A stretch of DNA of 64,000 nt, taken from assembly GCA_020692945.1 (NCBI GenBank), contig JAIMJY010000001.1:1-64000 (forward strand), in the 5' to 3' direction. The translations under genes were made by a program, and so were the position numbers. The notes under the pieces were generated by a model. That model saw nothing but the letters and a program-made list of their open reading frames with translations. It was not told the DNA's origin and ran no database searches. Positions 23,431-52,167 of the stretch are shown in pieces; the first letter of the stretch is position 1, and every line of letters starts with the position of its first letter. The DNA is from Caldisericum sp. (GTDB lineage Bacteria > Caldisericota > Caldisericia > Caldisericales > Caldisericaceae).

Positions 23431-24647
23431 ATCTCAAATTTCACCTTTTCTCCTTTATACAACCCTTCTTTGTTTTGAGGAATAACGAAAAACCCATTTC
23501 CTTTTTGCAAAGTGGTTACAAAAGCTGACTCAGAAAAAATTGGTTGAATAATATTTCTATCGCTATCCACTGACAAGAATCCAATAACAATTTCGCTTCG
23601 TCCTTTCTTAGACGGGACGTTTTCTGTAAGTTCTCCAATTACAGAGATCCTATCAGAAACTAAAGACAACTTTTTCATTATCAGATCTTTAACAATGATA
23701 AGGTATATCAAAGTAGCAGCTAACGGATTACCAGATAATCCTGCAATGAGTTTGCCTTGCACCACTCCAAAGACAGAAGGCTTTCCCGGGGAAACATTGA
23801 GGCCGTGAATCAATACGCCAGGTGAACCCATTTTATTGATCACTGACACAGTAAAATCAAAATTGCCTTTGCTCGTTCCTCCGCTCATAACAACTACGTT
23901 ATTTTCTGATAATGCCCGCTTCAAGTTTAATTCCAAAATATCTGGGTCATCTTTCAAAATGCCATAGTCTGTTGGGGTGAACCCGTCTTTAAGCATTTGG
24001 CTCATTAGAGAAATTCTGTTGTAATCGTATATTTTACCTATGGGCAATGGGTACTGGTCTGATAGTTCATCGCCAGTTGAGAACAATCCAATCTTTACAG
24101 GCTTAAAGACCTTAATAAGCTTAATTCCTGCACTTTTTAGTACTCCTATAGAGCGTGGAGTGATTCTTTCACCTTTTTTCAAAACCAATTCACCATATTT
24201 AACGTCAACCCCAGTTCGCAAAACATTTTTATTCGGCGCAACGTCTTTCATCACAAAAAGCGAATTGTTTAAAGAATCCGTATATTCAATCATGACGACG
24301 CAATCTGCGCCTTCTGGCAGATAGCCGCCGGTTGGTACAAATACTGCAGTCCCCTTTTCTAATAGTACATCTGGTTTCGTACCTATTTTTACTTCTTTGA
24401 GCACTGAAAGCATTGCAGGGTTAGAAGCATTTGCACCTTTGATGTCTGAGGATCTCACGGCAAAACCATCAACAAGAGATTTGTCGAAAGGTGGGATATC
24501 AAGTATTGAGGAAATGTCCTCTGCTAAAAAATATCCTGAGGAATAATTGACGGGAATACTTTTAAAAAGGGGTTCAATTGAAAAGGAATCCAAAAGTTTA
24601 TCTTGAACTTCGCCAACTTGAACTACCTTGAGGAATTTTTTGCCCAC
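23424..24647 (-). CDS. moeA: Molybdopterin molybdenumtransferase MoeA (second paralogue)
   Basis: 407 aa canonical MoeA domain organisation (GGTSKG-like motif GGTSKGNFD). Confidence 0.85.
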   Translation of the reverse strand: MGKKFLKVVQVGEVQDKLLDSFSIEPLFKSIPVNYSSGYFLAEDISSILDIPPFDKSLVDGFAVRSSDIKGANASNPAMLSVLKEVKIGTKPDVLLEKGTAVFVPTGGYLPEGADCVVMIEYTDSLNNSLFVMKDVAPNKNVLRTGVDVKYGELVLKKGERITPRSIGVLKSAGIKLIKVFKPVKIGLFSTGDELSDQYPLPIGKIYDYNRISLMSQMLKDGFTPTDYGILKDDPDILELNLKRALSENNVVVMSGGTSKGNFDFTVSVINKMGSPGVLIHGLNVSPGKPSVFGVVQGKLIAGLSGNPLAATLIYLIIVKDLIMKKLSLVSDRISVIGELTENVPSKKGRSEIVIGFLSVDSDRNIIQPIFSESAFVTTLQKGNGFFVIPQNKEGLYKGEKVKFEIW

Positions 24648-25558
24648 GATAATAAATCCTCAATTACGTTTTCAATTTTTTGGTTAATTGAAAGGTCTGC
24701 CTTTGAAAAAATTGGAGCGTTTGGATCTGCATTAAAAGCAATTATATGCTTTGCATGAACTGCATCAATGTGCTGGATAGCACCAGAGATTCCAAAAGCA
24801 ATGTACAGTTCTGGATTAATAGATAGCCCGGTGTCACCCACTATCCGATTAGCATCGATCAGTCCTCTATCGCCAACAGGCCGTGTGCAGCAAATTTCAG
24901 CACCAATAGATGATGCAAATTCTTTTATCTTGGGGATCAACGATTCTTTGACTCCCCTTCCAACACCCACAACAACTTTAGATTCAATAAGTGGATTATT
25001 TTCCAGGCATTCGCTTGAAATACAATCGAGTGAATGAGTTTTAGTCACCTGAATGACTTCGCAAATTCCTTTGGAATCCGCACTCTTTTTCAGCGGACTT
25101 ATTTTTGATTTTGTTTCTTTGTAATTGTTGCCCTTTTTCAAACGATTATAAGGAAAGCATTTCTTGTCGTCCTTTAAAATTAGAAGCGCTGGCTTTTTTT
25201 GAGAGAAAACTTCTGCAACAAAATTTTCCCAGCCGTAAACAAGTCCAATAATTTTACCATCCTCAAACTTGATTTCTTTGCTGTGAGCAATAAGCCCGAG
25301 AGCATTCTTACCTGCAAAATAGGATGCAGTTTCTTTTACAACTGTTTCATCTGAAAAGATTATCGCGTCAAAATCCATAATCCCTGGTATATTCGAGATG
25401 AAATCTGTTCCAATGAGAGGGTCGTTTATAGCCAGGGAAGGAATAAAATCTGCACTACCTTCTTCACTTGAAAAGCTTGCAGAAAACACTTCGGGGAACA
25501 TTCCACGAAGCTTGGAAATGATACCGTTATCTTCTTTAAAAATTCCCAATATCTTCAT
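24623..25558 (-). CDS. etfA: Electron transfer flavoprotein alpha subunit (FixB-like)
   Basis: 311 aa with C-terminal FAD-binding domain motifs (YIAFGISGAIQHIDAVHAKHIIAFN). The interdomain linker carries two in-frame repeat units. Confidence 0.85.
   Translation of the reverse strand: MKILGIFKEDNGIISKLRGMFPEVFSASFSSEEGSADFIPSLAINDPLIGTDFISNIPGIMDFDAIIFSDETVVKETASYFAGKNALGLIAHSKEIKFEDGKIIGLVYGWENFVAEVFSQKKPALLILKDDKKCFPYNRLKKGNNYKETKSKISPLKKSADSKGICEVIQVTKTHSLDCISSECLENNPLIESKVVVGVGRGVKESLIPKIKEFASSIGAEICCTRPVGDRGLIDANRIVGDTGLSINPELYIAFGISGAIQHIDAVHAKHIIAFNADPNAPIFSKADLSINQKIENVIEDLLSWAKNSSR
25066..25150 (-). repeat. Two tandem dispersed-repeat units in frame within etfA
   Basis: Units AAGTCCGC-TGAAAAAGAGT-GCGGATT-CCAAAGGAA and AATCGTT-TGAAAAAGGGC-AACAATT-ACAAAGAAA, translated as NRLKKGNNYKETKSK-ISPLKKSADSKGI. 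Confidence 0.8.
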
Positions 25559-32326: not shown

Positions 32327-32953
32327 TTAATAAAGCTTCTTAAGGTTTTCTGCCTTAAGAATGTTGATTTTATTTAAAAGATTGTTAGAAATTTCTTGAG
32401 ACTCAGTATCGATTCTTTTAACAAATCCGTAATCATCAATCGACTTAAGATTGATTTTTACGTTAAAATAAGAGCCGCTAATTCCAGCCTCCAAAAAGCA
32501 TAATCCTGTTCCAAAATCGCTTGCAGTTGACTCAAGAGTGTTCTTAAATGCAAAATCTAAGATCTCTGCAACTTCGTAGATAGAGTGCATCATCCGCAAA
32601 GGGGAAAGTGATGCATCTTTAAGTGATTCTTGTATTTTTCCCTTTCTTAAACGTTTATCCTCATCAGTTAATTTGGGAAGCTTAAATGCCTCCATAACAA
32701 TGTCAAAAGCAATTTTGTCGCCATTGGCTAATGTTATAAGTTTATCTATCGAAGACTCAAGTTTTTTAATATTACCGTTTAACTTGACTACAAGTTCTTC
32801 ATCCTTGCTCTTTTTTGCCGCCACCCCCATAGCCATTGAAATCAAGGCCAAACCCATTGCACTGCCAATAGCAGAAGCAGTACCACCGCCCGGGGTTGGG
32901 GAAGAAGAAGATAATTCAAAAAGAAATTCTTTGAGCGTAATTTCGTGAGACAT
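32327..32953 (-). CDS. Cyclodeaminase/cyclohydrolase family protein (formiminotransferase-cyclodeaminase C-domain-like; methenyl-THF cyclohydrolase-like)
   Basis: 208 aa with the N-terminal TPGGGTASAIGSAMGLAL signature of the cyclodeaminase domain. Confidence 0.65.
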   Translation of the reverse strand: MSHEITLKEFLFELSSSSPTPGGGTASAIGSAMGLALISMAMGVAAKKSKDEELVVKLNGNIKKLESSIDKLITLANGDKIAFDIVMEAFKLPKLTDEDKRLRKGKIQESLKDASLSPLRMMHSIYEVAEILDFAFKNTLESTASDFGTGLCFLEAGISGSYFNVKINLKSIDDYGFVKRIDTESQEISNNLLNKINILKAENLKKLY

Positions 32954-32987
32954 TAAATCACCTCTCTAAAAATAAAGTATTCTTTAT

Positions 32988-33177
32988 TCCTTTGTAATCC
33001 ATACTCTTTCTCAGTGGATTTACTCCTAGGGTATATAATATTGTATAAGATTTTCAATATATTTCAAGTGGCTTATTTTTGTAGATGACCTTTGCTTTTT
33101 CACTTTTTTTAACTCTTCTGTAACCTGCGATCTTTCTCAGCAGATTTATTTCCACCTTTTCAGCAGATTTCTAAAGC
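32988..33177 (-). repeat. Three dispersed-repeat units (32988-33030 and 33115-33177) in the upstream region of the rho operon, forming the left border of the accessory island
   Basis: Reverse complement reads AATCCAC-TGAGAAAGAGTA-TGGATT-ACAAAGG, then AATCTGC-TGAGAAAGATC-GCAGGTT-ACAGAA and a partial unit. Confidence 0.8.
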
Positions 33178-33201
33178 AAAATCTCTCCTACCGCAAGATA
33201 G

Positions 33202-33744
33202 GAGAGAGTAATTATTCAAGATGCGTTAGATTTATTAAAACAAGCTGCCCTAAATGCAGGAAATGAAATAAACAAAACTGGAATCTTAAGACAAAGACCA
33301 AATGAAGTTGGAAATGATATAGAAACGTACGTTAAGGATGCTTTAAATTCGTTAGGTTTAAAAGCAGATATTCCAGTAGGACCAAGTGGAAATAAAAAGG
33401 CTATGGGCTATCCTGATGTGCTGTTCTGGTTTAGTGATACACCCTATTATTTAGAATGTAAAACTTACAACATTGAAAATATAGAGACAACACAAAGAAG
33501 CTTTTATTTTTCGCCCTCTGATGAATTTAAAGTGACCTATGATGCGCCTCATTTTATTTTGTCTTTTGAAATTTATGTTTCTGGAGAGCAAGGAGACAAA
33601 CATATCTACAAATGCAAACATTACAAGATTTTGTCCGTAGAATCATTGTCATTGGATGTAAAGTATGAATTTAACTCTGATAATAAGAGAATGTATTCAG
33701 GTAAAGATGGAACAATTATTCTTGCAGAGTACGATATCTCTTAG
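33202..33744 (+). CDS. PD-(D/E)XK superfamily nuclease (restriction-endonuclease-like). The reading frame is open from 33202, but the first canonical start is ATG 33403; the start is uncertain (non-ATG or damaged).
   Basis: Motif GYPD-x14-ECK matches the PD-(D/E)XK active site. The upstream in-frame 67 codons (DALDLLKQAALNAG...IETYVKDAL) look like the helix that normally precedes the catalytic strands, so the protein probably starts before Met 33403. Confidence 0.5.
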   Translation, partial: ERVIIQDALDLLKQAALNAGNEINKTGILRQRPNEVGNDIETYVKDALNSLGLKADIPVGPSGNKKAMGYPDVLFWFSDTPYYLECKTYNIENIETTQRSFYFSPSDEFKVTYDAPHFILSFEIYVSGEQGDKHIYKCKHYKILSVESLSLDVKYEFNSDNKRMYSGKDGTIILAEYDIS

Positions 33745-34057
33745 CATTTGCACTCCTTCTTGCCTTATCATGATTAGATAAAGATTTCTTATTCAGTATT
33801 GCCTCCCTCTCTTTCGACAGCCTTCGTATATTAATTGGTAGGAGGCGAACAAAAATGAGAAAAACAAAAAAGTTATTGGAATAATAAAGAGTATGTTTGA
33901 GTAGAAAAATAAAAAAAGTATAATAAATAGTGGCTAAATAGATGGGAATATGGAGAAAATTAAAATGAATCTATTTGAAGATAAATAGATGTTAGTAATT
34001 TGTTTTAGGCATATAAGATTTGAGGGTTGTCTTTTTATTATTTAGGGAAAAGGAGGC

Positions 34058-34702
34058 TTGTCCATGAAAATCTTTCAAACTGAAGATGAATTAAAAGATC
34101 AGCTAAAAGATCAGATTGACTTTTTGATAAAATCTTCAAAAGCTTACGATGAAGGATTCACAAGTGAGGCAAAAAGACTAGCTACGGGGATTAGAGTATT
34201 GCTCCATGATACTCAAAATTTAACTTCTTTATTAACACTTTTGAAAAAAAATGATATTTTATTTTATGATACTTCATTAGATTATAATCAGAATAGTCTA
34301 CTTCTTACGCCTGGGCTCATTATGCTGAAAATGGGACCTAATGGCGGGGAGTATGTTCCACCGTTAGGTAATGGTCCTCCGACAAGGTATCAGAAGGGAA
34401 AAATTCCATTTACACAATGGTGGAATAAAATTGTGCTCGTAGATGACAAAGGCAATAAACTAACAAGAAAAGACTTAGTTCTCACAGTTTGCGACAAGGA
34501 TGGAGGAGCACATGTTGATCCGAAATTAGATGAAGCTTATTTTGCACTTTCACGATTTAATTCTTTGGGGTGGAAATACATAAAAAATGACGTTGAAAAA
34601 GATTTTGTTACCAGACCAGAATTAGCAAGTATACGGCAAATTAGTTACGAGGTACTAAAATCTCTTAAAGATGAATTTCCAGAATATTTTAAAACAGTAT
34701 AA
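34058..34702 (+). CDS. Hypothetical protein (214 aa), first gene of a three-gene cassette
   Basis: ORF with good RBS context (AAAGGAGG). No family recognised from sequence. Alpha-helical acidic N-terminus, Gly/Pro-rich centre. Confidence 0.5.
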   Translation: MSMKIFQTEDELKDQLKDQIDFLIKSSKAYDEGFTSEAKRLATGIRVLLHDTQNLTSLLTLLKKNDILFYDTSLDYNQNSLLLTPGLIMLKMGPNGGEYVPPLGNGPPTRYQKGKIPFTQWWNKIVLVDDKGNKLTRKDLVLTVCDKDGGAHVDPKLDEAYFALSRFNSLGWKYIKNDVEKDFVTRPELASIRQISYEVLKSLKDEFPEYFKTV

Positions 34703-34714
34703 GCCATCAATAAT

Positions 34715-35338
34715 TTGCAAGAGTTAGATAAAATTAAGTTTAAGGAGGAGGTAAATATGATTACAAAGCCAGTTGTAATTAAGTTTTTTGCTCCTGTCAT
34801 TGAAGTTACGATTAATGCTCTAATGAATGCTATTGATCAGAAAATGAAACAAGGGATAACAAATTTTATAATTCTAATTTCTTCACCTGGTGGTATGGTT
34901 TTTCACGGTTTAAGTGCATACAATTATTTGAAAGGAATACCTGCCATAATAACTACACACAATTTTGGTAGCGTGGACTCAATAGGTGTTGTTCTATATT
35001 GTGGTGGATCAAAAAGACTATCAGTACCTCAGGCAAGATTCTTACTTCATGGTGTTAGTGCCAATTTTGAACAGAAGACAAGCTTAGAAGAAAAGCAATT
35101 AGAAGAGAGGTTGAAAGGATTAAGGATTGACGTTGAGAATATTGCTAAGGTAATTGCGGCAAATACAGGTAAGAGTGTGGAAGCTGTGATAAATGCTATG
35201 CTTGAACGAACAACATTGAATCCTGAAGAGGCTCAAGCTTGGGGACTTGTGAATGAAATTAGATCCGAATTATTTGAAGCAGGGAGTGAAGTAATTTCAA
35301 TACAATTTCAACAACAGAATCCTAATATGCAGCCCTAA
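34715..35338 (+). CDS. ClpP/S14-family serine peptidase-like protein (ATP-independent, stand-alone)
   Basis: ILISSPGG motif aligns with the ClpP INSPGG block. Candidate nucleophile Ser in GSVDSIG and His in LLHGV align with ClpP Ser/His. The Asp position is not conserved (RT instead of RD). Lies 13 nt after the upstream gene. Confidence 0.65.
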   Translation: MQELDKIKFKEEVNMITKPVVIKFFAPVIEVTINALMNAIDQKMKQGITNFIILISSPGGMVFHGLSAYNYLKGIPAIITTHNFGSVDSIGVVLYCGGSKRLSVPQARFLLHGVSANFEQKTSLEEKQLEERLKGLRIDVENIAKVIAANTGKSVEAVINAMLERTTLNPEEAQAWGLVNEIRSELFEAGSEVISIQFQQQNPNMQP

Positions 35339-35401
35339 CTTAAACCATAAAACTATTATGCACATGCAAAGAAATTTCATACCAAGTAAAAGGATTGAAA
35401 T

Positions 35402-35908
35402 ATGAAAATAGAATGGAACTGGCAAGTAATAACAATAATAATAACTTCTATAGTTGCAGTTTATGGTGCAATACTTTCTACTGTGAACATGATAGCAAAT
35501 ATTAGAGATAAACAACTGCATTTATCTGTTGTTTTAAAAAGTGGTAGTTTAGAAGGCTCTTACTTACGTTTTGGCCCTCCTTCTGCCTCTTCAATGCTCT
35601 TTATAGTAATCGCAAATGTAGGTAGTAAAGTTGTAACAATACAAGTTATTAATATAAAAGTGACAAAAGGATCTTTCTTGCCTATATGGAATATCATTAA
35701 CCCAAAGGGGGTCTCTCTTCCTTATACTTTAGAGGAAAGTCAAAATTGCATTGCTGGAGTTGATATAAAGGAACTTTCCAAAAAACTCATCCAAAGTGGA
35801 TGTTCTAAAATTATTAAACTTCATGCTATTGTTGTAAGCGGAACAGGAAAAACATACAAGTCAAAGAAAGCATGGATACTTAATTTAGATAAATATAATA
35901 AACAATAA
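35402..35908 (+). CDS. Small membrane-anchored hypothetical protein (N-terminal TM helix, beta-rich C-terminus)
   Basis: 168 aa. Hydrophobic stretch VITIIITSIVAVYGAILSTV. Third gene of the cassette. Confidence 0.45.
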   Translation: MKIEWNWQVITIIITSIVAVYGAILSTVNMIANIRDKQLHLSVVLKSGSLEGSYLRFGPPSASSMLFIVIANVGSKVVTIQVINIKVTKGSFLPIWNIINPKGVSLPYTLEESQNCIAGVDIKELSKKLIQSGCSKIIKLHAIVVSGTGKTYKSKKAWILNLDKYNKQ

Positions 35909-36033
35909 TTGCTATTATAAAATGAAATTGATCGACTTTCCAATTATAATTTAAGAAAATATTGTGTTTTTATCTGAATATAGTTAAAATAAGATATCTG
36001 TTAAAATAAATGCATTAAGGGGTCCATAACAAA

Positions 36034-36363
36034 ATGAAAAAAGATAAAAAGTTTCAAGGCCAAGGAGTGCAAAAATGGAAACATCCGGGAGGAAAGTTAA
36101 GAGAACTGGGGGCAGACAAACTTTCTGATGCAGAGCTGTTGGCTATTCTTATTTCAACAGGCACGAAAAATAAGTCGGCAGAAGCAATAGCCAATGAACT
36201 TATTAGTAAATTTGGATCCTTTCGTGGCTTAGCGAATCAACCGCTTTCTAAGCTTCTTGAAATTAACGGACTCGGTGATGTCAAAATTATACGTATCGCT
36301 GCTACTTTTGAAATAGCGCGTAGAATTGCTAACGAAATAGTTAAAACTTATGAGCAAAAGTAA
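36034..36363 (+). CDS. RadC N-terminal domain-like helix-hairpin-helix protein lacking the JAB/MPN domain
   Basis: LSDAELLAILISTGTKNKSAEAIANELISKFGSFRGLANQPLSKLLEINGLGDVKIIRIAATFEIARR closely matches the RadC N-terminal HhH region. Its stop overlaps the start of the downstream RM gene by 14 nt. Confidence 0.7.
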   Translation: MKKDKKFQGQGVQKWKHPGGKLRELGADKLSDAELLAILISTGTKNKSAEAIANELISKFGSFRGLANQPLSKLLEINGLGDVKIIRIAATFEIARRIANEIVKTYEQK

Positions 36364-39300
36364 AAAATTAGGAAAGATTTCATCAGAAACAAAAACAACT
36401 ATTCCAAATCCTTTTGAGATATCGACTCACAAAACAGAAAGGTCAGGTGCTGCTGTCATTATGCACTGGATGAGAGATATTATAGAGGAGAAGAATATTG
36501 ATTTAGGTTTACCTGATGTTGAAACAGGTGGCAAGGATAGCCTCTTTCCAGATACAATAATTAAAAAAACAAGAATAAGTCATGATGTTTTATGTGTTAT
36601 GGAGTTTAAACCCCCTCACTGGGATCCTTTTAACTATGATGATCCAAAAGAACCAGCTCGGAAAAAAGCTACCAAAAGAAACGCAAAATACTTCGCTACC
36701 TCGAACTTTCGAGATTTGATTCTTTGGAGTACTGAAAAGGTTAATGCCAACAAACCAGAAGAAGAACAAATCGTTTCACGCTATCATTTGTCAGATATTT
36801 ACGACCTTGACATGCTTGAGGACAATAGATACAAGGTTCCTACTAAAAAAGAGCTTGAAAAGTTTTTGACTGATCTTTACGAGTTTTCTACTGGTACCAA
36901 GGTTGAGCCACTTTTGGCTGTTGATGAATTACTCATTTATCGTCTTCAGGAAAAAATTGGAAAACTCGCGTACTATTATAGAGAAATTATTTATGATAAG
37001 ACTCACAAGGATAAAGATTTTGCCGAAAAGCTCTCAAAGTGGTTTACGGAACAAGGTTGGAGTTTTTTCATAGAAGATGAAGATTGTTATAATCGCATAG
37101 CTCATCAAACAGCATATCTTTTAGCAAATAAAATTATCTTCTACAATGCTTTGCAATTAAAGCGTCCTGATAAGCTAAGTCCATTAAGCATTCCTGAAGA
37201 CCTTACTCATGGCAAGATATTAGAAGGTTTCCTACAGTCATATTTTAAGTCTGTGCTTGATATAGATTATGAAACAATTTATACAACTGACTTTATTGAT
37301 GAAATTGCTTTTCCTGATAGTAAAGAAGTTGTTGAAGAAATCAAGAGCTTGGTTAATATTCTAAAACAATATGACTTTTCAAGCTTAGGTTTCGATGTAA
37401 TTGGTAGAATATTTGAGCGTTTAATTCCAGCGGATGAGAGACATAACTTAGGGCAATATTTTACCAATCCAGATATCGTTGATTTGATACTTCAATTTTG
37501 CATAAAAAACGAAAGAGATAAAATTTTTGACCCTTCTTGCGGTGCAGGCACCTTCCTTGTGCGTGCTTATCAGTATAAAAAACTGATGAACCAGAGGTTG
37601 CAGCACGAGGAAATCTTAAACACTCTTTGGGGAAACGATATCGCCAAATTTCCAGCCCATCTTTCTACAATTAACCTTGCGATAAACGACCTTTCGGTAG
37701 AGAAGAATTATCCTAGAATCATGCAGAAAGACTTCTTTGACCTCTTAGCTTCGCCGGATGAAGGATTTCGTTTGCCAGAGGACGTGAGAAAAGTTCTGTT
37801 AAAAACAATGAGCAATGAGGAATTTGAAATTGTCCACCCTCGTTGGTTTGATGTAATTGTAGGAAATCCTCCTTACACGAGGCAAGAGGAGATTTCCGAG
37901 ATTTCTGGAGATGAAGCGTACAAGGGAAATTTAATTGACAAAGCACTGAGATATGGAAATAATAAAATAGCAGATATTTCAAAGAGAGCTGGTATCTATG
38001 CGTATTTCTTCGTCCATGGAACTAAATTTCTGAAAGATAGTGGGCGTTTTGGTTTTATTGTTTCAAATGCCTGGCTTGACGTTGAGTATGGGGCTGGACT
38101 CCAAGAATTCTTTCTTGAAAACTACAAAATCGTTGCTATTATTGAGTCCAAAGTAGAGCGATGGTTTAAGGATGCGGATATTAATACTGTAATTGTGATT
38201 CTTGAAAAATGCAAAGAAAAAGAAGAGCGAGACAATAATGTTGTTCGTTTTGTATATTTGCTTAAGACTCTTCGAAATTTTATCCCTCCAGCTCAAACAA
38301 TCTGGGAAAAACAAATTGGAAGAAAGCAGGCCATAGATAATTTAATTAAGACTATCCTTGCACACTCAGAACTTTATGAAAATGAAGAGCTCAGGATTTT
38401 TGCCAAGAAACAATCAGAGCTCTGGGACGAAGGGTTAGACCCTGAAGAGCAAAAATATGTTGGTTCAAAGTGGGGAAAATATTTAAGGGCACCAGAAATC
38501 TTTTTCAAAATTTTGGAGAAAGGAAAAGACAAATTAGTCCCACTGAAAAAAATTGCAGATGTACGACGAGGTTTTACAACCGGCGCTAATGAGTTTTTCT
38601 ATTTAACTGAAGAAGAAATAAAACGCCGCAAGATTGAGAAAGAATTTTGGATGCATCAAGAGGGAAGAGGCAACTGGGTGCCAAACTATATTATTAAAAG
38701 CCCAAGGGAGTGTAAATCAATCATTGTTAATCCTAAAGATTTGAAGTACCTAGTTCTAATGATTCACAAAGATAAGGAAGATTTGAAGGGCACTAATGTC
38801 TTAAAATACATTGAAGAAGGTGAACGAAATGGATTTCATAATAGGCCGACGTGTGCAAGCAGGGAAAGATGGTATGAACTAACAGAGTTTAAAAGTAATA
38901 TTGTATGCATGATGACAGTAAATAAAAGGCATATTTGGCTTGATAATAGAAATGAATTTTTTATTGACGCAAGATTATACGGTGCTAACATAAAAGACAA
39001 TAGATATAAAACAATTTTAGGCACCATGCTTAATTCTACTTTGTTTTGGTTATTTACAGAATTGTGGGGGAGAGTGAATTTAGGAGAAGGAGCTCTTGAC
39101 GTTAAGGTTTATGAATATGCTTCTATGCCAGTATTAAAATTTGATAATAGGTTAGAAGAATTATTTAAAAACGAGATTTACAAAAGACCTATTAATGATG
39201 TTTTTGATGAGCTTGGTGTCTCTTCCCCTGAAAAAGTCTCTCTTGACAAAGTTAAGCCCGACAGAAGAGAATTAGATAAGATTGTAATGGGAGATCTCCT

Positions 39301-39826
39301 TGGATTAACTGATGACGAGCAATTAGAGGTCTATCATTCGGTCGTGGATTTAGTAAAATCAAGAATTGAAAAATCAAAAAGTGTTGGAAAATCTCACAAA
39401 GTAAAAAAAGGCATAGATATAGATGCAATATTAGTGCTCATTATAGAAAAGATTGGCGATAAAAGTCTTAAGAAGTGGTATGAAGAAAAAATTCTATCAA
39501 GAAACGACCTGGAAACAAAAGAGCTTCCCGAGATAGGCAATAACTTAAAGATAGAAAAAGGGCTTTATGGTTGGAAAATCAAAGGTGAAAGAGGTACCTT
39601 GCAATGCACTTCTGAGGCTGAGGCAGAATATTTGAAAGTATGGATTGAAATAGGTGCCAAATCTATTGATATTCCAAAAGATGAAACATATTTATCAAAA
39701 GTTGCAGAAGAACTTAAAACTCTTAAGAAAGAAATAGGCGATATAATTGATTCATATCTTGGTTCAGTTTTAGATATTAAATTAAAATCGCAAATTCTAT
39801 ATCGAATTTGGCAAAGTATAAGTTAA
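36350..39826 (+). CDS. Type IIG/IIL restriction-modification fusion enzyme: N-terminal PD-(D/E)XK endonuclease, gamma-class N6-adenine DNA methyltransferase, C-terminal target-recognition region
   Basis: 1158 aa. Nuclease motif FPD-x18-EFK near the N-terminus. MTase motif I FDPSCGAGTFLV and motif IV VGNPPYT. Long C-terminal region typical of TRDs in MmeI/Eco57I-like enzymes. Confidence 0.8.
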   Translation: MSKSKKLGKISSETKTTIPNPFEISTHKTERSGAAVIMHWMRDIIEEKNIDLGLPDVETGGKDSLFPDTIIKKTRISHDVLCVMEFKPPHWDPFNYDDPKEPARKKATKRNAKYFATSNFRDLILWSTEKVNANKPEEEQIVSRYHLSDIYDLDMLEDNRYKVPTKKELEKFLTDLYEFSTGTKVEPLLAVDELLIYRLQEKIGKLAYYYREIIYDKTHKDKDFAEKLSKWFTEQGWSFFIEDEDCYNRIAHQTAYLLANKIIFYNALQLKRPDKLSPLSIPEDLTHGKILEGFLQSYFKSVLDIDYETIYTTDFIDEIAFPDSKEVVEEIKSLVNILKQYDFSSLGFDVIGRIFERLIPADERHNLGQYFTNPDIVDLILQFCIKNERDKIFDPSCGAGTFLVRAYQYKKLMNQRLQHEEILNTLWGNDIAKFPAHLSTINLAINDLSVEKNYPRIMQKDFFDLLASPDEGFRLPEDVRKVLLKTMSNEEFEIVHPRWFDVIVGNPPYTRQEEISEISGDEAYKGNLIDKALRYGNNKIADISKRAGIYAYFFVHGTKFLKDSGRFGFIVSNAWLDVEYGAGLQEFFLENYKIVAIIESKVERWFKDADINTVIVILEKCKEKEERDNNVVRFVYLLKTLRNFIPPAQTIWEKQIGRKQAIDNLIKTILAHSELYENEELRIFAKKQSELWDEGLDPEEQKYVGSKWGKYLRAPEIFFKILEKGKDKLVPLKKIADVRRGFTTGANEFFYLTEEEIKRRKIEKEFWMHQEGRGNWVPNYIIKSPRECKSIIVNPKDLKYLVLMIHKDKEDLKGTNVLKYIEEGERNGFHNRPTCASRERWYELTEFKSNIVCMMTVNKRHIWLDNRNEFFIDARLYGANIKDNRYKTILGTMLNSTLFWLFTELWGRVNLGEGALDVKVYEYASMPVLKFDNRLEELFKNEIYKRPINDVFDELGVSSPEKVSLDKVKPDRRELDKIVMGDLLGLTDDEQLEVYHSVVDLVKSRIEKSKSVGKSHKVKKGIDIDAILVLIIEKIGDKSLKKWYEEKILSRNDLETKELPEIGNNLKIEKGLYGWKIKGERGTLQCTSEAEAEYLKVWIEIGAKSIDIPKDETYLSKVAEELKTLKKEIGDIIDSYLGSVLDIKLKSQILYRIWQSIS

Positions 39827-39875
39827 TATTTTGAATATGAATGTTACTTAATTGTTTTGAAATGAATTTTGCTAT

Positions 39876-39903
39876 TTGATGTTTTCCTGCAATCTGTTAT
39901 AAT
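39876..39903 (+). promoter_or_regulatory. Sigma70-like promoter with extended -10 (TTGATG -35, 16 nt spacer, TGTTATAAT) upstream of the toxin-antitoxin operon
   Basis: Hexamers read directly. RBS AGGGAGG follows. The same TCTGTTATAAT box recurs at 219-232 and about 62388. Confidence 0.45.
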
Positions 39904-39924
39904 ATTTCAAAAGGGAGGTTAAGA

Positions 39925-40509
39925 ATGTATAAAATTGAAGAAATCATTGAGGCTCTCCTTTACTTTGCAGGTTCGCAAGACATTAAGACAAAAATAGTAA
40001 AAGCATGCTATCTTTTAGAGTCAGAATATTTTGATAAGACAGGCCAAAGACTTACTGACATTGAGTATAAATATCACCTTTACGGTCCTTATAGCGAAGC
40101 TATTATAAGTTCAATGATGAACGATAAAAATATTGCATATAGCCCTCAAACAAGCATGAATGGAAATGAGTACGATTTGTTCAAACTTAAAAAAACTTCT
40201 GTTATCGCTAAAATTGATTCATTGGCACTTTCCTTTATCGAGAAGTGGGCAAAGATAATGCAGCAAAAGACATATAACGAAATGTTAGAACTTGCATATA
40301 ATGATAAGAATTTTAAGAGAACTGAAAAAGGACAAATCATAAAGTTTGATTCAGATTTTCTCAAAAAGAAAGAGTTGTTAAAGAAAAGAGCAAAGGAAAA
40401 ATTCGGAAACCGTAAACTAACAAAAGAAGAAGCTGACGGCTTGAAAGAAGCAGGCAACGAAGACTTAATTCAATACTCAAGGAAGTTATTAAAAGAGTCA
40501 GGTAGATGA
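39925..40509 (+). CDS. Panacea-domain (DUF4065, SocA-like) antitoxin
   Basis: N-terminal LLYFAG ... YKYHLYGPYSEAI pattern typical of Panacea/DUF4065 proteins. 4 nt overlap with the downstream toxin gene. Confidence 0.7.
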   Translation: MYKIEEIIEALLYFAGSQDIKTKIVKACYLLESEYFDKTGQRLTDIEYKYHLYGPYSEAIISSMMNDKNIAYSPQTSMNGNEYDLFKLKKTSVIAKIDSLALSFIEKWAKIMQQKTYNEMLELAYNDKNFKRTEKGQIIKFDSDFLKKKELLKKRAKEKFGNRKLTKEEADGLKEAGNEDLIQYSRKLLKESGR

Positions 40510-40886
40510 AAGCGCGTGTTCACCCTAAACGAGGCTTTGTATATAGAATTATTCTTAATTATATAGATAGACCTGCAGAATCTAATGAAAAGCATATGGT
40601 CGTTGTTATCCAAAACAATGATATTCTAAAATGGTCAAGAGAAGTTAATGTCTTGGAAATAACAAGTAACCCGAGGGACATTAGTGCACCATATAACGTT
40701 TCTCTTCCAGCAAAAACTCTAACGAGCCAATATCAATCAACCGACAGCAAAATTAAATGCCATGTCCTTTATGGAGTCAAGATAGAAGATTTGCTTAACG
40801 GAGAGTATTGCGGAAAAATCCCAAGTGAAATTATGAAAGAAATTGACGATGCAATTATTTTTTCACTTGGATTGTCAGAAGATTAA
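40506..40886 (+). CDS. MazF/PemK-family type II toxin (endoribonuclease fold)
   Basis: 126 aa with the conserved pattern RGFVY ... HMVVVIQNND ... ITSN ... KCHVLYGVKIEDL ... GKIPSEIMKEIDDAIIFSLGL matching Kid/PemK/MazF. Confidence 0.7.
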   Translation: MKARVHPKRGFVYRIILNYIDRPAESNEKHMVVVIQNNDILKWSREVNVLEITSNPRDISAPYNVSLPAKTLTSQYQSTDSKIKCHVLYGVKIEDLLNGEYCGKIPSEIMKEIDDAIIFSLGLSED

Positions 40887-40906
40887 TAGTTCAGAAGATT
40901 AATAGT
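40875..40906 (+). repeat. Perfect tandem duplication of the 16-mer TCAGAAGATTAATAGT spanning the toxin stop codon
   Basis: Read directly: two identical 16-mers followed by a partial third (TCAGAATATAATAA). Confidence 0.6.
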
Positions 40907-41069
40907 TCAGAATATAATAAAGTTTTATTGTGTGGAGCAAATTATGGACGACCAGGAAAAACAAAAAATTGACGTTATAATGAAAGACTATGAAATACTA
41001 AAAACCTATTCTACTCCAGTCGGAAAAAAAGTCAAACAATTTGAATCAGACCTTTTGTTAAGTTTCATA

Positions 41070-41172
41070 AACCTGCTGAGAATGATCGTGGGTTCCAAAG
41101 GATTAAATCCACTGAAAAGGATCGTGGATGAATCCGATGAAAATGAGCTCGGATTTCAAAGGAGTGACAAAA
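41070..41172 (+). repeat. Three dispersed-repeat units forming the right border of the accessory island, upstream of tilS
   Basis: AACCTGC-TGAGAATGATC-GTGGGTT-CCAAAGGATTAA; ATCCAC-TGAAAAGGATC-GTGGAT; AATCCGA-TGAAAATGAGCT-CGGATTT-CAAAGGAGT. Confidence 0.8.
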
Positions 41173-41202
41173 TATTAAACGGGGGGCAGCAGAGAAGTAA
41201 AT

Positions 41203-42546
41203 ATGGAAAACAGCCTGATAGACAAAATAAAAGAGGCTATAATTAATTTCAGCCTCATAGAGAAAAACGAGAAGGTGCTCATCGGGGTTTCGGGAGGACC
41301 AGACTCTTTGGCATTGCTTGCGGCATTGAATAAGCTTAAAAATGAATTGAATTTTTCAATAGCTGTTGCGACCTTTAATCATTTGATAAGAGATGAGTCG
41401 GGAAGCGAAGTCGAATTCGTAAGAGAGCTAACCAAAAATCTCGGAGTCCCCTTTTACACCAAACAAGAAGACATATTAAAAATTGCAAAAATGGAGTTTC
41501 TTTCTTTAGAGGAGGCTGCAAGGAAAGCGCGATTGGATTTCCTTTTTGCAATAAAAGACGAAAATCATTTTGATAAAATTGCTCTTGCTCATACCCTTGA
41601 TGACCTCGTAGAAACAATGCTATTTCATTTGATTAAAGGTACAGGAGCTTCGGGCTTAATTGGAATGAAGCCAAAAAGTTTTAACGGAATCATTCATCCG
41701 ATGCTAAGCGTTGAGAAAAAGGAAGTATTAGTTTTCTTGACAAATGCCAAAATCAGCTATAAATCAGACCTGACCAACCTCTCGCTTCGATACGAAAGGA
41801 ATAAAGTGCGCCTTCAAATCGTGCCGATGTTTGAAGCAATGAATCCTAATTTTAATAAGCACATGCTGTATACATCGCTTGTTTTGAGAGATGAGGACGA
41901 ATTCATCGAAGCTATTTCTAATAAAGACGCCAAGGTGATAAAAGATGGTGACTCGTACTCAATTTCAATCTTTAATAACCTCCCCATTTTTGAAAAAAGA
42001 AGAATCCTCAGGGCTATATTGGGAAAAGAATCAAATTTTGAAAGAATCGAAAGGGCTATGCTCTTTCTCAAGGGCAAGTTCGGCAGGCTCAACATTTTCG
42101 GAGAAACTTACATCGTATCAAGTAGCAGCCATTTTTGGCTCGAACAAAAAACTCCCTTCACGATAGATAGGAAAATCGTACTTGAGATTCCCGGAACTAC
42201 CGTTATTCCCGATGCAGATCTCGCAATAGAAACGCTTCTGAGCAGCAACCTTCCGGTATTAGACAATCTCAATGTTGCTTTTGATTTGAAAGAGCTCAAG
42301 TTGCCTTTAAGAGCTCGCTTCAGGCGCGAAGGAGACAAAATGCTAACAGAAGTTGGTTACAAAAAAGTTCAAGATATTTTTACTGACTGCAAGGTAAGAA
42401 GAGACAAGCGATATAAAACGCCAATTGTAACTGACAGAGACGATGAAATTCTCTGGATACCTGGAGTAAAGAGGAGCTCCCTAAATAAAATAAGCAATAA
42501 AGCGTCACAAACGCTTATTCTTAAGGCCGTATTTAATAAAAAATAA
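41203..42546 (+). CDS. tilS: tRNA(Ile)-lysidine synthetase
   Basis: 447 aa with N-terminal PP-loop (VSGGPDSLALL) and TilS C-terminal domain. Confidence 0.9.
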   Translation: MENSLIDKIKEAIINFSLIEKNEKVLIGVSGGPDSLALLAALNKLKNELNFSIAVATFNHLIRDESGSEVEFVRELTKNLGVPFYTKQEDILKIAKMEFLSLEEAARKARLDFLFAIKDENHFDKIALAHTLDDLVETMLFHLIKGTGASGLIGMKPKSFNGIIHPMLSVEKKEVLVFLTNAKISYKSDLTNLSLRYERNKVRLQIVPMFEAMNPNFNKHMLYTSLVLRDEDEFIEAISNKDAKVIKDGDSYSISIFNNLPIFEKRRILRAILGKESNFERIERAMLFLKGKFGRLNIFGETYIVSSSSHFWLEQKTPFTIDRKIVLEIPGTTVIPDADLAIETLLSSNLPVLDNLNVAFDLKELKLPLRARFRREGDKMLTEVGYKKVQDIFTDCKVRRDKRYKTPIVTDRDDEILWIPGVKRSSLNKISNKASQTLILKAVFNKK

Positions 42547-46773: not shown

Positions 46774-46986
46774 CTAAGGAAGAATTACTCCTGATAAAAG
46801 AGGGTCGATAACAGGTGCAATTTCAAACAGAATTGAAATAATTAATGCCGAGAAGATTAGAGAAGAAGCAAGGGCAAATGCAATGAACTGTTTATTTTCT
46901 CCTTTCATGATCCGGTTTTTAAGAGCTTTTGGTATTTCAATCCCATCAGAGACTATTTGAAAGTAATCTTTAATTTTATTCTCCAC
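46774..46986 (-). CDS. Small single-TM protein (possible anti-sigma-factor-like partner), GTG start
   Basis: 70 aa with one hydrophobic helix. Overlaps the 3' end of the sigma region-4 fragment by 11 nt, the arrangement typical of ECF sigma / anti-sigma pairs. Confidence 0.35.
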   Translation of the reverse strand: MENKIKDYFQIVSDGIEIPKALKNRIMKGENKQFIAFALASSLIFSALIISILFEIAPVIDPLLSGVILP

Positions 46987-47134
46987 TGTCCATTTCCTCC
47001 TTCAATTTCCTTTTTGCATTAAAAAGCCTTGATTTCACAGTTCCTTCCGGAACATCGAGCACAAAAGCTATTTCTTTCTCGCTCATGCCTTTAAAGAATT
47101 TCAAATAAATTGCTTCGTAATCATCTCGCTCAAG
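46976..47134 (-). pseudogene. Remnant of an ECF/sigma-70 family sigma factor: only region 4 (HTH) is encoded
   Basis: Frame translation ERDDYEAIYLKFFKGMSEKEIAFVLDVPEGTVKSRLFNAKRKLKEEM is a textbook sigma region 4.2. An in-frame TAA lies immediately upstream, only about 45 nt separate it from the neighbouring permease gene, and the only RBS (AGGAGG) feeds a different frame that yields a 10 aa peptide. Confidence 0.55.
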
Positions 47135-47182
47135 TTACCTCCTGTATATTAGATACGTTGAGGAAGAAAAAGGTTCAAAAAT

Positions 47183-48454
47183 TTATCGATAAAAGAGTGC
47201 AAATAAAATTCCTGCAACTAAAATATTGATGAAGGTAATCGGGACAACTGCTTTTAAATAATCTTTCCACTCAACGTCAATGCCTGCCTTGGATAAGATT
47301 GAAAGGCCAACAACATTTGCAGAGGCACCAATCGGGGTGAAGTTTCCTCCTACGTCTGTTCCAAAGCTAACTATTAAGCCCATACCCAACAAGGAAACAA
47401 CGCCTGATGGAGACATTAATTTAACAACTGGCACCATTGATGCTGCAAACGGGACGTTATCGATAAAACCAGAAAGTATTCCCGAAGACCAAAGAAGAAT
47501 ACCCTTAGTTAGAATACTGCTTCCGTTTGAAAGATCTGTAATCGCTTTGCTAAGCGATGCAATCACACCAGTTTTTTCTAACGAACCAATTATGATAAAT
47601 AGAGTGGTAAAAAACATAAGCACTTCCCAATCAATTGATTCCCAGATATTTGCAACTCTTTTCCCGTTAAGCAAAAGCGCAAGTGATGCTCCCAAAAGAC
47701 CGGCATACGCAACTGGAAAATTCAGCTTTTCATGGAGAATAAGTAGAGTAATAGCCAAAATAAAACTTATTATGCCGGTTACCATCATGTAAAAGTCATT
47801 GACATGCTCGGAAGGATTCAAGCTTTTTAAGTACTCTTTATCGAGGCTTGCAGATTTTGCAAAACTTTTCTTATAGAAAAAAACAAAGTAAAGAGTGTTT
47901 AAAAGAAGTATCGTGATAGAGATAGGTGCAAGGTATCTAACGAACTGGTTCAGTGTAATTCCAAGACCAGTACCAAGAATGATATTAGGAGGATCGCCCA
48001 TGAGAGTTGCGCTTCCACCAATGTTTGCAGCGGTTATCTGAGACAAAACAAATGGAATCGGACTCATTTTCATTTTCTTGGCTGTTTGAACCGATAAAGC
48101 GCTCATGAATAGCAAAACTGTAATGCTGTCCATAAAAGCTGCAAGCAAGCCAGTAAATAAGGCGAAGGCGATAAGAATATTAATAGGTACACCTTTTGTG
48201 AATTTTAACACTTTCACGCTCAGAAAATCAAAAAATCCGCTATCGGTTAAGATTCTTACAAGGATGAACATTCCGAAGATAAGCCCGATTGCCTCCCAGT
48301 TGACTGATGAAACAATTTCTTTTGGCTCAAGGACTCCAAAGATTACGAGCAAAAAAGCTCCTACCAGTGAAACAATTGAGCGCGGCAATAGATTAAAAAT
48401 AATGAAGGCATAAACAATAACAAATATTAATAAAGAAATGATTTTAGGGCTCAT
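47183..48454 (-). CDS. ArsB/NhaD-superfamily permease (YbiR/citrate-transporter-like anion or Na+/H+ transporter)
   Basis: 423 aa polytopic membrane protein with the duplicated hairpin-loop pattern of this ion-transporter superfamily (GGSATLMGDPPNII ... GGNFTPIGASANVV). Confidence 0.7.
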   Translation of the reverse strand: MSPKIISLLIFVIVYAFIIFNLLPRSIVSLVGAFLLVIFGVLEPKEIVSSVNWEAIGLIFGMFILVRILTDSGFFDFLSVKVLKFTKGVPINILIAFALFTGLLAAFMDSITVLLFMSALSVQTAKKMKMSPIPFVLSQITAANIGGSATLMGDPPNIILGTGLGITLNQFVRYLAPISITILLLNTLYFVFFYKKSFAKSASLDKEYLKSLNPSEHVNDFYMMVTGIISFILAITLLILHEKLNFPVAYAGLLGASLALLLNGKRVANIWESIDWEVLMFFTTLFIIIGSLEKTGVIASLSKAITDLSNGSSILTKGILLWSSGILSGFIDNVPFAASMVPVVKLMSPSGVVSLLGMGLIVSFGTDVGGNFTPIGASANVVGLSILSKAGIDVEWKDYLKAVVPITFINILVAGILFALFYR

Positions 48455-49394: not shown

Positions 49395-50150
49395 ATGCTT
49401 AAGGTTAGAAAATTTCCGAGCGTTTTGCTTTCTATTTCTACCGTTGGTGTTGTCTTCGCTGTATTTGCGTTTTTTTCAAAAGGTAAATTACTTTTTGGCC
49501 TCGTTTCCCTCGCCATTTCTACAATCATTTACTTAGCTTATTTGCTTTCTTATGATTATAAAGCTTCCCATCTCATGCTAACAGCAAAGAAATATCTTGA
49601 TAAAGAAAATGCAGATAAGGCTGCTGATTGTATTTTGGAGTCCGCTCGATTGAATCCAGATGAAGAAAATCTTGTCAAAATATTCGGACATCAAAAGAAA
49701 AACTTAGATGCTTTTAGGCAAACTGCAGTCAAAATGTACAAGGAAATTGGTGCAAATGATACTCCTTTCGTTCGCTTTACAATTGCAAGTTTTTTCTATT
49801 TTGCTGGCGACCTGAAAAAGGCAAAAGAACTTTTGAATGAAGTTCCTGAGGAAAAGCGCACAATCAAAATGGTAAGACTTCTTGGTTCAACTCTTTTTGA
49901 TCTCAAAGATTACGACAAATCAATTGAAGCATTAAGTACTTATGATCCCCCGTACCTTCCAACAAATGAAGATGAACTTGCTGTAGTTTTCGGTTTAGGA
50001 ATTGCTTATCTTAGTAAAGGTGACAAAGATAAAGCATTTGAGTATCTCGTTAGGGTGGAAACAAGAAATTCCAAGTTTGGTAACGTTTCAAAAATCTTAG
50101 CAAGCATCGAAGACGAAACGGAGAAGGATAAATCAACTCACACTGCCTGA
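49395..50150 (+). CDS. Membrane-anchored TPR-repeat protein
   Basis: 251 aa with two N-terminal TM helices followed by TPR-like helical repeats. Confidence 0.55.
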   Translation: MLKVRKFPSVLLSISTVGVVFAVFAFFSKGKLLFGLVSLAISTIIYLAYLLSYDYKASHLMLTAKKYLDKENADKAADCILESARLNPDEENLVKIFGHQKKNLDAFRQTAVKMYKEIGANDTPFVRFTIASFFYFAGDLKKAKELLNEVPEEKRTIKMVRLLGSTLFDLKDYDKSIEALSTYDPPYLPTNEDELAVVFGLGIAYLSKGDKDKAFEYLVRVETRNSKFGNVSKILASIEDETEKDKSTHTA

Positions 50151-50193
50151 GCAAAGCTAAAGGCAAGGTCTTTTACTTGAAGGAAGATAAATT

Positions 50194-50235
50194 AAGGAGG
50201 CTGCTCATACACTGATAGCAGCCTCCTTAAGTAGT
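50194..50235. terminator. Bidirectional rho-independent terminator between convergent genes
   Basis: 12 bp perfect stem AAGGAGGCTGCT / AGCAGCCTCCTT with 11 nt loop, T-rich flanks on both strands. Confidence 0.6.
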
Positions 50236-50247
50236 TTTAAGAAATTA

Positions 50248-51444
50248 TCACTGATATCTTAATGCTTCAACGGGATTCAATCTTGATGCCCTTCTTGCAG
50301 GGTAAACCCCAAAGAAAACACCAATGAGAAGTGAAACTAAAAACCCAACAACTATCGAAGTGGGAGTTATGTGAGTAGGTATTACGCTCTCAGGAACAAG
50401 TTTTGACAACGTAACGCCAAAGATTATCCCAACAACCCCGCCAAACGCTGAAATAAATGAAGCTTCTATCAAAAACTGAGTTAAAATATCCCTGTTTTTT
50501 GCTCCTACCGCTTTTCTTATCCCTATTTCCCTTGTTCTTTCGGCAACTGATGCAAGCATTATGTTCATTATACCAATGCCTCCAACAATCAATGCTATAG
50601 ACCCAATTGCGGTAAGCGCCACGGTAAACGTGTCAGTAACCTGTTTTGCTAACTGGAGATACTGTTGCTCGCTTCTTATAGTAAAATTTTCCATGCCGTG
50701 AAGCTCCATAAGCATCCTTTTAAGTCTTGCCCCGAACAACTCGATCGAGGTTGTTGGAGGTGCTTTAGCGTATACAACTTGAAGGCTCCTCTTGTTAATA
50801 ATTGCCTGCATTGAAGTTACCGGAACAAAAACTGTCTGGTCGAGGTTCATTTGCCCGAATGCACCCTGAGATTCAAGCACTCCAATTACCGTAAACTTTG
50901 TATTTAAGAGCTTTACTGAGTTGCCTAATACTTTGCCTGATTTAAATAACTGCTGGTATGTTTCGTAACCTAGTATGCAAATGTTTCTATAATTTGCTAC
51001 GTCTTCAGTATTAAAACCTCTTCCTAACTGCAACTTGTAGTTTGAAACAAGCAAAATATCCTCATTTGAGCCCACAACAGTCGTAAAAATCTCCGTATTG
51101 CCATATTTTATTGTAGATGTAGCAGTGAGCTCTGGAGCAATTTTAGCATCTGGGATTTTCTTCTTAAGGTACTTTACATCATCATATGTAAGAGGTTTCC
51201 TCAGAGCGCTTTCGCCAATTGCAGCACTCATTAGAGTTGAGCCTTTCCCTGGCAAAATCAAAACCACATCGGATCCAAGCGACTGAATGCTTGATAAAAT
51301 GCTGTTCTGAGCACCGTAGCCGAAAGAAGTTATAAGTATGAGAGAAGAAACGCCAACAATAACTCCAAGCATTGATAGAAATGTCCTCATTTTGTTAAGC
51401 TTCATGGAGGTAAAAGCCATTTTAAGAATTCTGATAATTTTCAT
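50248..51444 (-). CDS. ABC transporter permease, MacB/FtsX family
   Basis: 398 aa with N-terminal TM, periplasmic MacB_PCD-like domain and C-terminal FtsX 3-TM bundle. Confidence 0.85.
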   Translation of the reverse strand: MKIIRILKMAFTSMKLNKMRTFLSMLGVIVGVSSLILITSFGYGAQNSILSSIQSLGSDVVLILPGKGSTLMSAAIGESALRKPLTYDDVKYLKKKIPDAKIAPELTATSTIKYGNTEIFTTVVGSNEDILLVSNYKLQLGRGFNTEDVANYRNICILGYETYQQLFKSGKVLGNSVKLLNTKFTVIGVLESQGAFGQMNLDQTVFVPVTSMQAIINKRSLQVVYAKAPPTTSIELFGARLKRMLMELHGMENFTIRSEQQYLQLAKQVTDTFTVALTAIGSIALIVGGIGIMNIMLASVAERTREIGIRKAVGAKNRDILTQFLIEASFISAFGGVVGIIFGVTLSKLVPESVIPTHITPTSIVVGFLVSLLIGVFFGVYPARRASRLNPVEALRYQ

Positions 51445-51446
51445 GA

Positions 51447-52163: not shown

Positions 52164-52167
52164 ACTT

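Follow-up and report, generated by a model that had tools for sequence, protein, structure and literature searches.

A small mosaic, very probably horizontally acquired defence-type island between the rho and tilS operons of Caldisericum sp.

The stretch of DNA analysed here (hereafter the window) comprises 64,000 nucleotides of Caldisericum sp., positions 1 to 64,000 of contig JAIMJY010000001.1 in assembly GCA_020692945.1. Between its rho and tilS operons lies a block of 7.7 kb, from position 33208 to about 40906, that is very probably a horizontally acquired, mosaic island of defence-type genes in the divergent promoter region between these two core operons. An original prediction, made from the sequence alone, had placed an accessory block of about 8 kb here, and this is borne out by an empty site in a relative, by the composition of the block, by the foreign affinities of its genes and by an excess of single nucleotide polymorphisms (SNPs). 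On the left, the operon ...def-sua5-prmC-prfA-tk-rho-FTCD_C occupies the minus strand with its 5' side ending at 32953; its first gene, the cyclodeaminase-like FTCD_C (32327–32953, minus strand; Pfam FTCD_C, E=1e-47), is followed by rho, tk and prfA in an order that is kept in the conspecific assemblies and in the relative with the empty site. On the right, tilS (41203–42546, plus strand; identified by homologue search and synteny) is the first gene of the plus-strand group tilS-hpt-ftsH. The eight open reading frames (ORFs) of the island are all on the plus strand, with AT-rich spacers of 63–313 nucleotides (nt); they were said to run opposite to the flanking operon, which is true with respect to the rho operon but not with respect to tilS-hpt-ftsH, whose direction they share. 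The defence-type content within the 7.7 kb is a Type IIG restriction-modification enzyme, the remnant of a Type II restriction endonuclease and a PanA-MazF toxin-antitoxin pair.

In a single relative (locus L181) the two operons are direct neighbours, the arrangement that the original prediction had suggested looking for: def-sua5-prmC-prfA-tk-rho-FTCD_C faces tilS-hpt-ftsH-HhH_GPD-DUF362 on the opposite strand across a gap of 352 nt, without an island, and the synteny extends over at least seven genes on the left side and at least nine on the right. We found no island gene, island remnant or hairpin repeat of the kind described below in this AT-rich spacer. The core proteins are 71% (Rho), 73% (TK), 75% (Hpt), 73% (FtsH), 50% (TilS) and 41% (FTCD_C) identical to those of L181. 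No island gene is present in this or the other tilS loci fetched from relatives (L010/L011, L012/L013 and L014). Sampling around this organism is sparse, and by its sequence the host is a member of the Caldisericota without a close sequenced relative. The window is 99.5–100% identical to contigs of four metagenome-assembled genomes (GCA_017973955.1, GCA_017973915.1, GCA_017973935.1 and GCA_020692315.1), which make up our conspecific set, and beyond these a homologue search of 5.8 billion proteins gave a best non-self TilS match of 55% identity. The nearest named TilS homologue belongs to "a Caldisericaceae bacterium", and the closest match in a species-representative collection is the Caldiserica genome UBA646. 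A scan of a genome collection with TilS as single query returned no match, and with a TilS alignment there was one Caldisericota locus among the matches listed.

By protein identity, the nearest homologues of the island genes, in unrelated organisms, are much closer than any homologue of the core genes; the island proteins share 57–95% identity with proteins from other phyla and from archaea, whereas the slowly evolving FtsH and Rho reach only 71–73% even in the syntenic L181. Composition sets the block apart as well. The GC content is 0.336 in 32954–41202 and 0.380 in the remaining window; when all 64 kb were scanned, the 8249-nt window with the lowest GC was found to start at 32901, and only 0.2% of sliding windows were equally low, in accord with the lower GC claimed for the block. 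The island genes have a GC content of 0.340 as against 0.380 in the 49 other genes (Mann-Whitney p=4e-5), and a third-position GC content (GC3) of 0.273 as against 0.328 (p=0.001). A codon-usage score relative to the core genes, the other half of the suggested check, does not set the island apart beyond its AT bias. The cumulative GC-skew minimum at about 33 kb was considered as a possible replication origin and rejected (12 DnaA-box-like sites were found where 16.6 are expected, with no clustering there); the minimum falls at this place because skew tracks gene strand.

Within the species the island is the diversity hotspot of the locus. Among the four conspecific assemblies there are 6.3–11.1 SNPs per kb inside the island and 0.6–1.0 per kb in 10–12 kb of flanks, a 6–13-fold ratio. 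The SNPs lie in dense short patches (36045–36126, 37345–37582, 39244–39346 and 39575–39790), are mostly synonymous, and are common to different assemblies in differing combinations, a pattern that fits exchange with diverged alleles.

These observations bear on the polarity of the difference between the window and L181. If the block were ancestral and had been lost from the L181 lineage by deletion, relaxed selection would have to account for its low GC; its presence in every conspecific assembly, the single known empty site and the rearrangement of the region upstream of tilS in other relatives could be read in that way. The identities of 57–95% to proteins of other phyla and archaea, compared with 71–73% for FtsH and Rho to L181, speak against it, as do the lack of island genes in the fetched tilS loci and the SNP patches, which indicate ongoing exchange, and we consider an ancestral block very improbable. 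Several points nevertheless weigh against horizontal acquisition of a defence island as we propose it. The only known empty site is in a distant relative (TilS 50% identical), and in the other relatives, L010/L011 (TilS 52%), L012/L013 (48%) and L014 (54%), the gene order 3' of tilS is kept but unrelated genes lie upstream; with a single distant empty site, the polarity of a gain in the window's lineage is drawn from composition and homologue identities, not from a resolved phylogeny. All four of the four conspecific assemblies carry the island, with no presence/absence polymorphism. The shift in GC, 4.4 points, is real yet modest; the SNP patches could in part be chimeric consensus of co-existing strains, as these are metagenome assemblies; and three of the eight island genes have no predicted function, while the defence roles of the others are read from sequence.

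Both edges of the foreign DNA can be placed with some likelihood. At the left is an orphan intrinsic terminator (33182–33207, minus strand; in a terminator scan, an 11-bp stem, then TTTTGCTTTA, with a T-rich tail). No present minus-strand gene ends at this terminator (33207–33182), and the frame of the endonuclease remnant opens adjacent to it at 33202; the terminator and the truncated gene are likely the left edge. The likely right edge is a perfect 16-nt tandem duplication found by repeat finding (TCAGAAGATTAATAGT, two copies; 40875–40906, plus strand), which overlaps the mazF stop codon. An ORF of 104 amino acids (aa) beyond it (40932–41246) encloses the right cluster of hairpin repeats, consists largely of repeat sequence and is without a family match in Pfam, NCBIfam, PADLOC or PHROGs, the four protein family libraries searched; it is probably spurious.

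The block has none of the hallmarks of a classical integrase-type genomic island or integrative element. No island ORF has an integrase, recombinase or transposase domain in the four libraries; no tRNA or tmRNA gene lies beside the island, the tmRNA at 61784–62132 being the sole gene of either kind in the window; and there are no flanking direct repeats. The search for target-site duplications at the junctions that had been recommended likewise found none, the longest direct repeat there being of 8 nt, which is chance level (it is reached by 83% of shuffles). As all these features are missing, we suggest that the island was built up by successive illegitimate or flank-homology recombination, and is not a self-mobile element; its left end would have been eroded later. 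The minimal mobile elements of Neisseria, described reportedly by Saunders and Snyder in 2002 as variable cassettes between conserved genes that have no mobility genes and are exchanged by flank homology, are similar in that a cassette lies between two core genes without integrase, tRNA or direct repeats and with dispersed repeats nearby. They differ in that no alternative cassettes or empty alleles occur among the four conspecific assemblies studied here.

Clusters of hairpin repeats lie near both borders of the island, and it had been predicted that such repeats bound the block on both sides and may mark or mediate its insertion. The repeat unit is approximately AAATCYRC-TGARAANGAKY-GYRGATTA-CAAAGGAATAAA, 40 nt with a 6–7-bp stem, a conserved loop and a conserved tail, and the two sides of the stem co-vary between copies (ATCCAC/GTGGAT, ATCTGC/GCAGAT, ATCCGA/TCGGAT). 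The left cluster (32984–33172, minus strand) has two full units and one partial unit (nhmmer matches at 33030–32984, E=4e-10; 33151–33110, E=3e-9; and 33172–33155, E=0.05; motif scans agree), and the right cluster (41064–41166, plus strand) has three units (41064–41107, E=6e-10; 41102–41129, E=3e-6; and 41129–41166, E=2e-8). In the whole window there are about 20 copies in 10 clusters, which occupy 8 of the 24 intergenic gaps of at least 60 nt and 6 of the 14 of at least 150 nt. Neither the island nor the repeats matched any RNA family in Rfam, even at a permissive threshold.

If the repeats had mediated the insertion, either by recombination between copies or through a repeat-recognising transposase or recombinase, the inverted clusters would be the ends of the inserted unit. 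The clusters are indeed inverted and within 250 nt of both island borders, the 7.7 kb between them has no copy at all while the remaining window has about 20, and short-read assemblies break at both clusters. Other observations speak against such a role. With 8 of 24 gaps occupied, the probability that two named gaps both have repeats is about 0.10–0.17, so although clusters are present at both borders they are not specific to this site. Most copies point in the direction of the neighbouring gene (the left cluster is on the minus strand like FTCD_C, the right on the plus strand like tilS), and since the flanking operons are divergent, this alone predicts the inverted arrangement. Dispersed repeats of any kind would be expected to break an assembly. 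The family is, moreover, absent from the fetched loci of the relatives, including the empty site; there is no target-site duplication; and the foreign DNA begins on the left with a truncated gene beside a terminator, at a distance of 30 nt from the repeats. A role of the repeats in the insertion was thus not borne out, and we regard it as unlikely. In the acquired island that we favour, they appear to be bystanders belonging to a genome-wide, lineage-specific, REP-like family, which would have spread into many intergenic regions, the two halves left of the FTCD_C/tilS spacer among them.

Some copies of the repeat lie within genes. In an ETF-alpha-like gene (24623–25558, minus strand) repeat units are in frame at 25064–25159, in the linker before the ETF_alpha FAD domain, and at this site the conspecific genes (L001 17396–18403 and L003 7532–8539) have an extra 24 in-frame codons (72 nt) of repeat. 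A full unit at 23028–23071 (nhmmer E=9e-11) lies in the MoeA_N region of a MoeA-PBP gene (21481–23430, minus strand), whose 649-aa ORF is otherwise intact. The hairpin-repeat family thus occurs in frame within protein-coding genes as well, with a copy number that varies there. REP and BIME elements of the proteobacteria are likewise numerous short imperfect palindromes in mostly intergenic clusters with compensatory stem changes, and the Rickettsia palindromic elements share with some of the window's copies an in-frame position inside genes; the window's repeats are a different sequence family from either, in a different phylum.

The genes of the island are best described as independent modules, not one system, judging by where their homologues occur. 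The leftmost is a 5'-truncated remnant of an MjaV-like Type II restriction endonuclease (33202–33744, plus strand; PADLOC REase_II PDLC03511, E=2e-27; PF27324 MjaV in the precomputed table). The match covers only positions 71–221 of the 230 in PDLC03511, and the homology sets in 141 nt before the first ATG (33403); back to the stop at 33199–33201 this frame offers no start codon. The PD...ECK motif is kept, and there is no partner methyltransferase. The PD-(D/E)XK nuclease that had been predicted here is therefore right as to Type II endonuclease homology and wrong as to a functional gene, the 5' third and the start codon being gone.

The next three genes were predicted to form a cassette around a ClpP-like peptidase. 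The first encodes a 214-aa protein (34058–34702, plus strand) with a full-length match to phrog_7805, a widespread mobile family of unknown function, and no match in Pfam, NCBIfam or PADLOC. It has 760 homologues with 55–92% identity (62% in a Methanophagales archaeon) and resembles a protein of a Gordonia phage; in the four contexts compared its homologues are solitary genes that adjoin restriction-modification genes twice and a ClpP gene in no case. The second encodes a divergent ClpP-like peptidase (34715–35338, plus strand; Pfam CLP_protease, E=7e-21), which is not a canonical ClpP by either its predicted triad or its NCBIfam score: in an alignment with ClpP2 (6x60) the Ser and His align but the position of the triad Asp is Thr, and TIGR00493 gives 47.7 bits where the equivalog cut-off is 308.6. 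The closest solved structure is that of the non-canonical PpClpP1 (9uxt), whose triad is Ser-His-Pro (PMC12900304). Among its 2691 homologues the best 120 are 79–100% identical across phyla (87% in Coprothermobacterota), so that this Ser-His-Thr ClpP paralogue keeps its sequence despite changing neighbours; at the four loci compared (L097–L100; three distinct contexts, two loci being the same place) it is a single gene among unrelated, mostly hypothetical neighbours, with neither the 214-aa nor the 168-aa gene. The third gene encodes a predicted membrane protein of 168 aa (35402–35908, plus strand) with a hydrophobic N-terminal stretch that is, by eye, likely a membrane helix; it has no match in any of the four libraries and is dissimilar to the genes downstream of the ClpP-like homologues elsewhere. 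As the homologues occur apart with unrelated neighbours, the three genes are not a conserved unit, and the cassette finds no support in the contexts compared. That the ClpP-like and 214-aa genes are new stand-alone defence or counter-defence genes is less likely than the obligatory HhH partnership considered below.

Some of these matches might suggest that the block is the decayed remainder of a prophage or integrative element after deletion of the genes for its integrase and structural proteins. Phage head-maturation protease families are among the matches of the ClpP-like protein (phrog_94, E=1e-18; NCBIfam Clp_rel_HeadMat), the 214-aa protein is in a PHROG and resembles the Gordonia phage protein, MazF is a common phage moron, and the left end of the island is eroded. 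On the other hand, genes for capsid, terminase, tail, integrase and replication functions are all missing from the island; no close relative turned up in viral contigs when these were scanned for the ClpP-like, the Type IIG and the 168-aa protein; the ClpP-like homologues are on long contigs among cellular accessory genes and not in prophages; and the modules are distributed independently of one another. We consider a prophage origin improbable, and return to the block as a mosaic of separately acquired modules.

Its largest module begins with a stand-alone RadC-N-type helix-hairpin-helix (HhH) protein of 109 aa (36034–36363, plus strand; UPF0758_N, E=1e-19, and HHH_2), whose gene overlaps by 14 nt that of a Type IIG restriction-modification enzyme of 1158 aa (36350–39826, plus strand; PADLOC REase_MTase_IIG, E=5e-52, residues 60–980; Pfam Eco57I, N6_Mtase and M_Eco57I_C). 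Both had been recognised in the original prediction, and the profile matches confirm the two identities. The Type IIG enzyme consists of an N-terminal PD-ExK nuclease, a gamma-class N6-adenine methyltransferase, a variable specificity region and a C-terminal tail. P67-D68...E85-x-K87, DPSCGAGTF and NPPY (505–508) are invariant in 17 Type IIG orthologues, while residues of about 760–960 are variable; with nuclease and methyltransferase in one polypeptide and their motifs conserved, the enzyme is predicted to be intact. The best homologues, from diverse metagenomes, are up to 74% (HhH) and up to 64% (Type IIG) identical; on plasmids only distant homologues of the Type IIG enzyme were found (at most 35% identity), none with an HhH partner. 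In seven loci (L109, L117, L118, L127, L133, L141 and L143) the counterpart of the last ~120 residues of the Type IIG enzyme (window 39452–39826) is a separate ORF, 29–38% identical to residues 1035–1157, and the C-terminal tail may be a detachable subunit.

The pairing of the HhH and Type IIG genes recurs widely. In a survey of 80 metagenome loci of the HhH gene (L101–L180), 54 are informative in having at least 900 nt downstream, and in 42 of these a giant methyltransferase-bearing ORF lies 3' of the HhH gene. At 24 loci a Type IIG orthologue starts at the HhH stop (typical overlaps are 4, 11 or 14 nt); at 5 it follows a small inserted gene, which is PIN or PBECR2 toxin-like in two; and at 13 a divergent methyltransferase-bearing ORF of 1000–1130 aa is in the Type IIG position. 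The overlap between the HhH gene and the large gene is 4–17 nt in most loci. Among the 12 loci without a tblastn match, Pfam finds directly 3' a Type ISP-like ORF in L174 and an N6_N4 methyltransferase ORF in L166, and four others are full-length RadC genes. In addition, two proteins (P0461 and P0462) have the HhH domain fused directly to an N6_N4 DNA methyltransferase. We also considered whether the HhH gene could be a truncated core radC, and rejected this, its best relatives being stand-alone proteins of 90–130 aa and not full RadC. No other island gene occurs at any of the 80 loci, which suggests that the modules travel independently.

From the operon coupling and the fusions, the HhH protein is most likely a DNA-binding partner (with non-specific binding) or a regulator of the Type IIG enzyme. 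The further idea that single-chain restriction-modification enzymes of a widespread clade (Type IIG and Type ISP-like) have in it an obligatory and undescribed partner is a tentative one, possible rather than probable; we found no description of a link between HhH proteins and Type IIG enzymes or methyltransferases in the searchable literature. In its single chain, N-terminal PD-ExK nuclease, gamma-class NPPY methyltransferase and variable specificity region the island enzyme is like Type IIG enzymes of the Eco57I/MmeI kind, and it is unlike them in being preceded by a stand-alone RadC-N HhH gene to which it is apparently translationally coupled.

The rightmost two genes are a Panacea-domain (PanA/SocA-like) antitoxin gene (39925–40509, plus strand; Pfam SocA_Panacea, 26.3 bits, barely above the cut-off of 25.7) and a gene for a MazF/PemK-family toxin (40506–40886, plus strand; Pfam PemK_toxin, E=9e-13, 48.8 bits with a cut-off of 23.1; PHROG MazF-like growth inhibitor, E=3e-13). 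The antitoxin gene is first and overlaps mazF by 4 nt. By their adjacency and domains the two are a predicted type II toxin-antitoxin pair, as had been proposed, both domains being above the Pfam cut-offs. Pairs of a toxin with a PanA (Panacea-domain) antitoxin were reportedly described by Kurata et al. in 2022. Like PanA-toxin and MazEF systems, the pair has the antitoxin gene first, a 4-nt overlap and both Pfam domains, and it differs in that its Panacea match only just passes the cut-off and in that it is known from sequence.

With at least two predicted defence systems, a site that is empty in a relative and an apparent horizontal origin, the block has the features by which defence islands are recognised. 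The concept, of clustered restriction-modification, toxin-antitoxin and abortive-infection genes, is said to go back to Makarova, Wolf, Snir and Koonin in 2011. Like such islands, the block combines restriction-modification genes with a toxin-antitoxin pair and with uncharacterised genes, is atypical in composition, has a patchy distribution and shows raised diversity; it differs in being small (8 genes), in having no further PADLOC match and in having no neighbouring mobile-element genes. Its retention could be explained if the Type IIG enzyme restricts incoming DNA that lacks methylation, and if the toxin-antitoxin pair either aborts infection or keeps the block stable.

Two other differences between lineages were seen around the tilS block. 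Between a 70-aa gene and an ArsB-like transporter gene, two relatives (L010 15580–17369 and L181 12214–13967) have an ECF-type sigma factor gene (153–155 aa) and two other genes, and in the corresponding part of the window (46774–47183) only a 42-aa Sigma70_r4 fragment is left (a gene call in the conspecific L007); this looks like a lineage-specific deletion. The ABC/FtsX transporter genes, which in the window are downstream of a TPR gene (49395–54045), are in L010 (1–1787 and 19625–21347) about 8 kb upstream of tilS; this suggests that the region around the tilS block was inverted or rearranged between the lineages.

The island itself is ordinary, a small defence island in an under-sampled phylum. 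It suggests that the sparsely sampled Caldisericota, too, assemble small defence islands without an integrase where essential operons diverge from a promoter region, and that such islands are fast-evolving spots of otherwise nearly clonal populations. The recurrent operon and fusion link between HhH proteins and methyltransferases offers a testable context for the poorly understood RadC N-terminal domain, and if the HhH protein is indeed an obligatory partner, the window would hold, in intact form, a two-component variant of Type IIG restriction.

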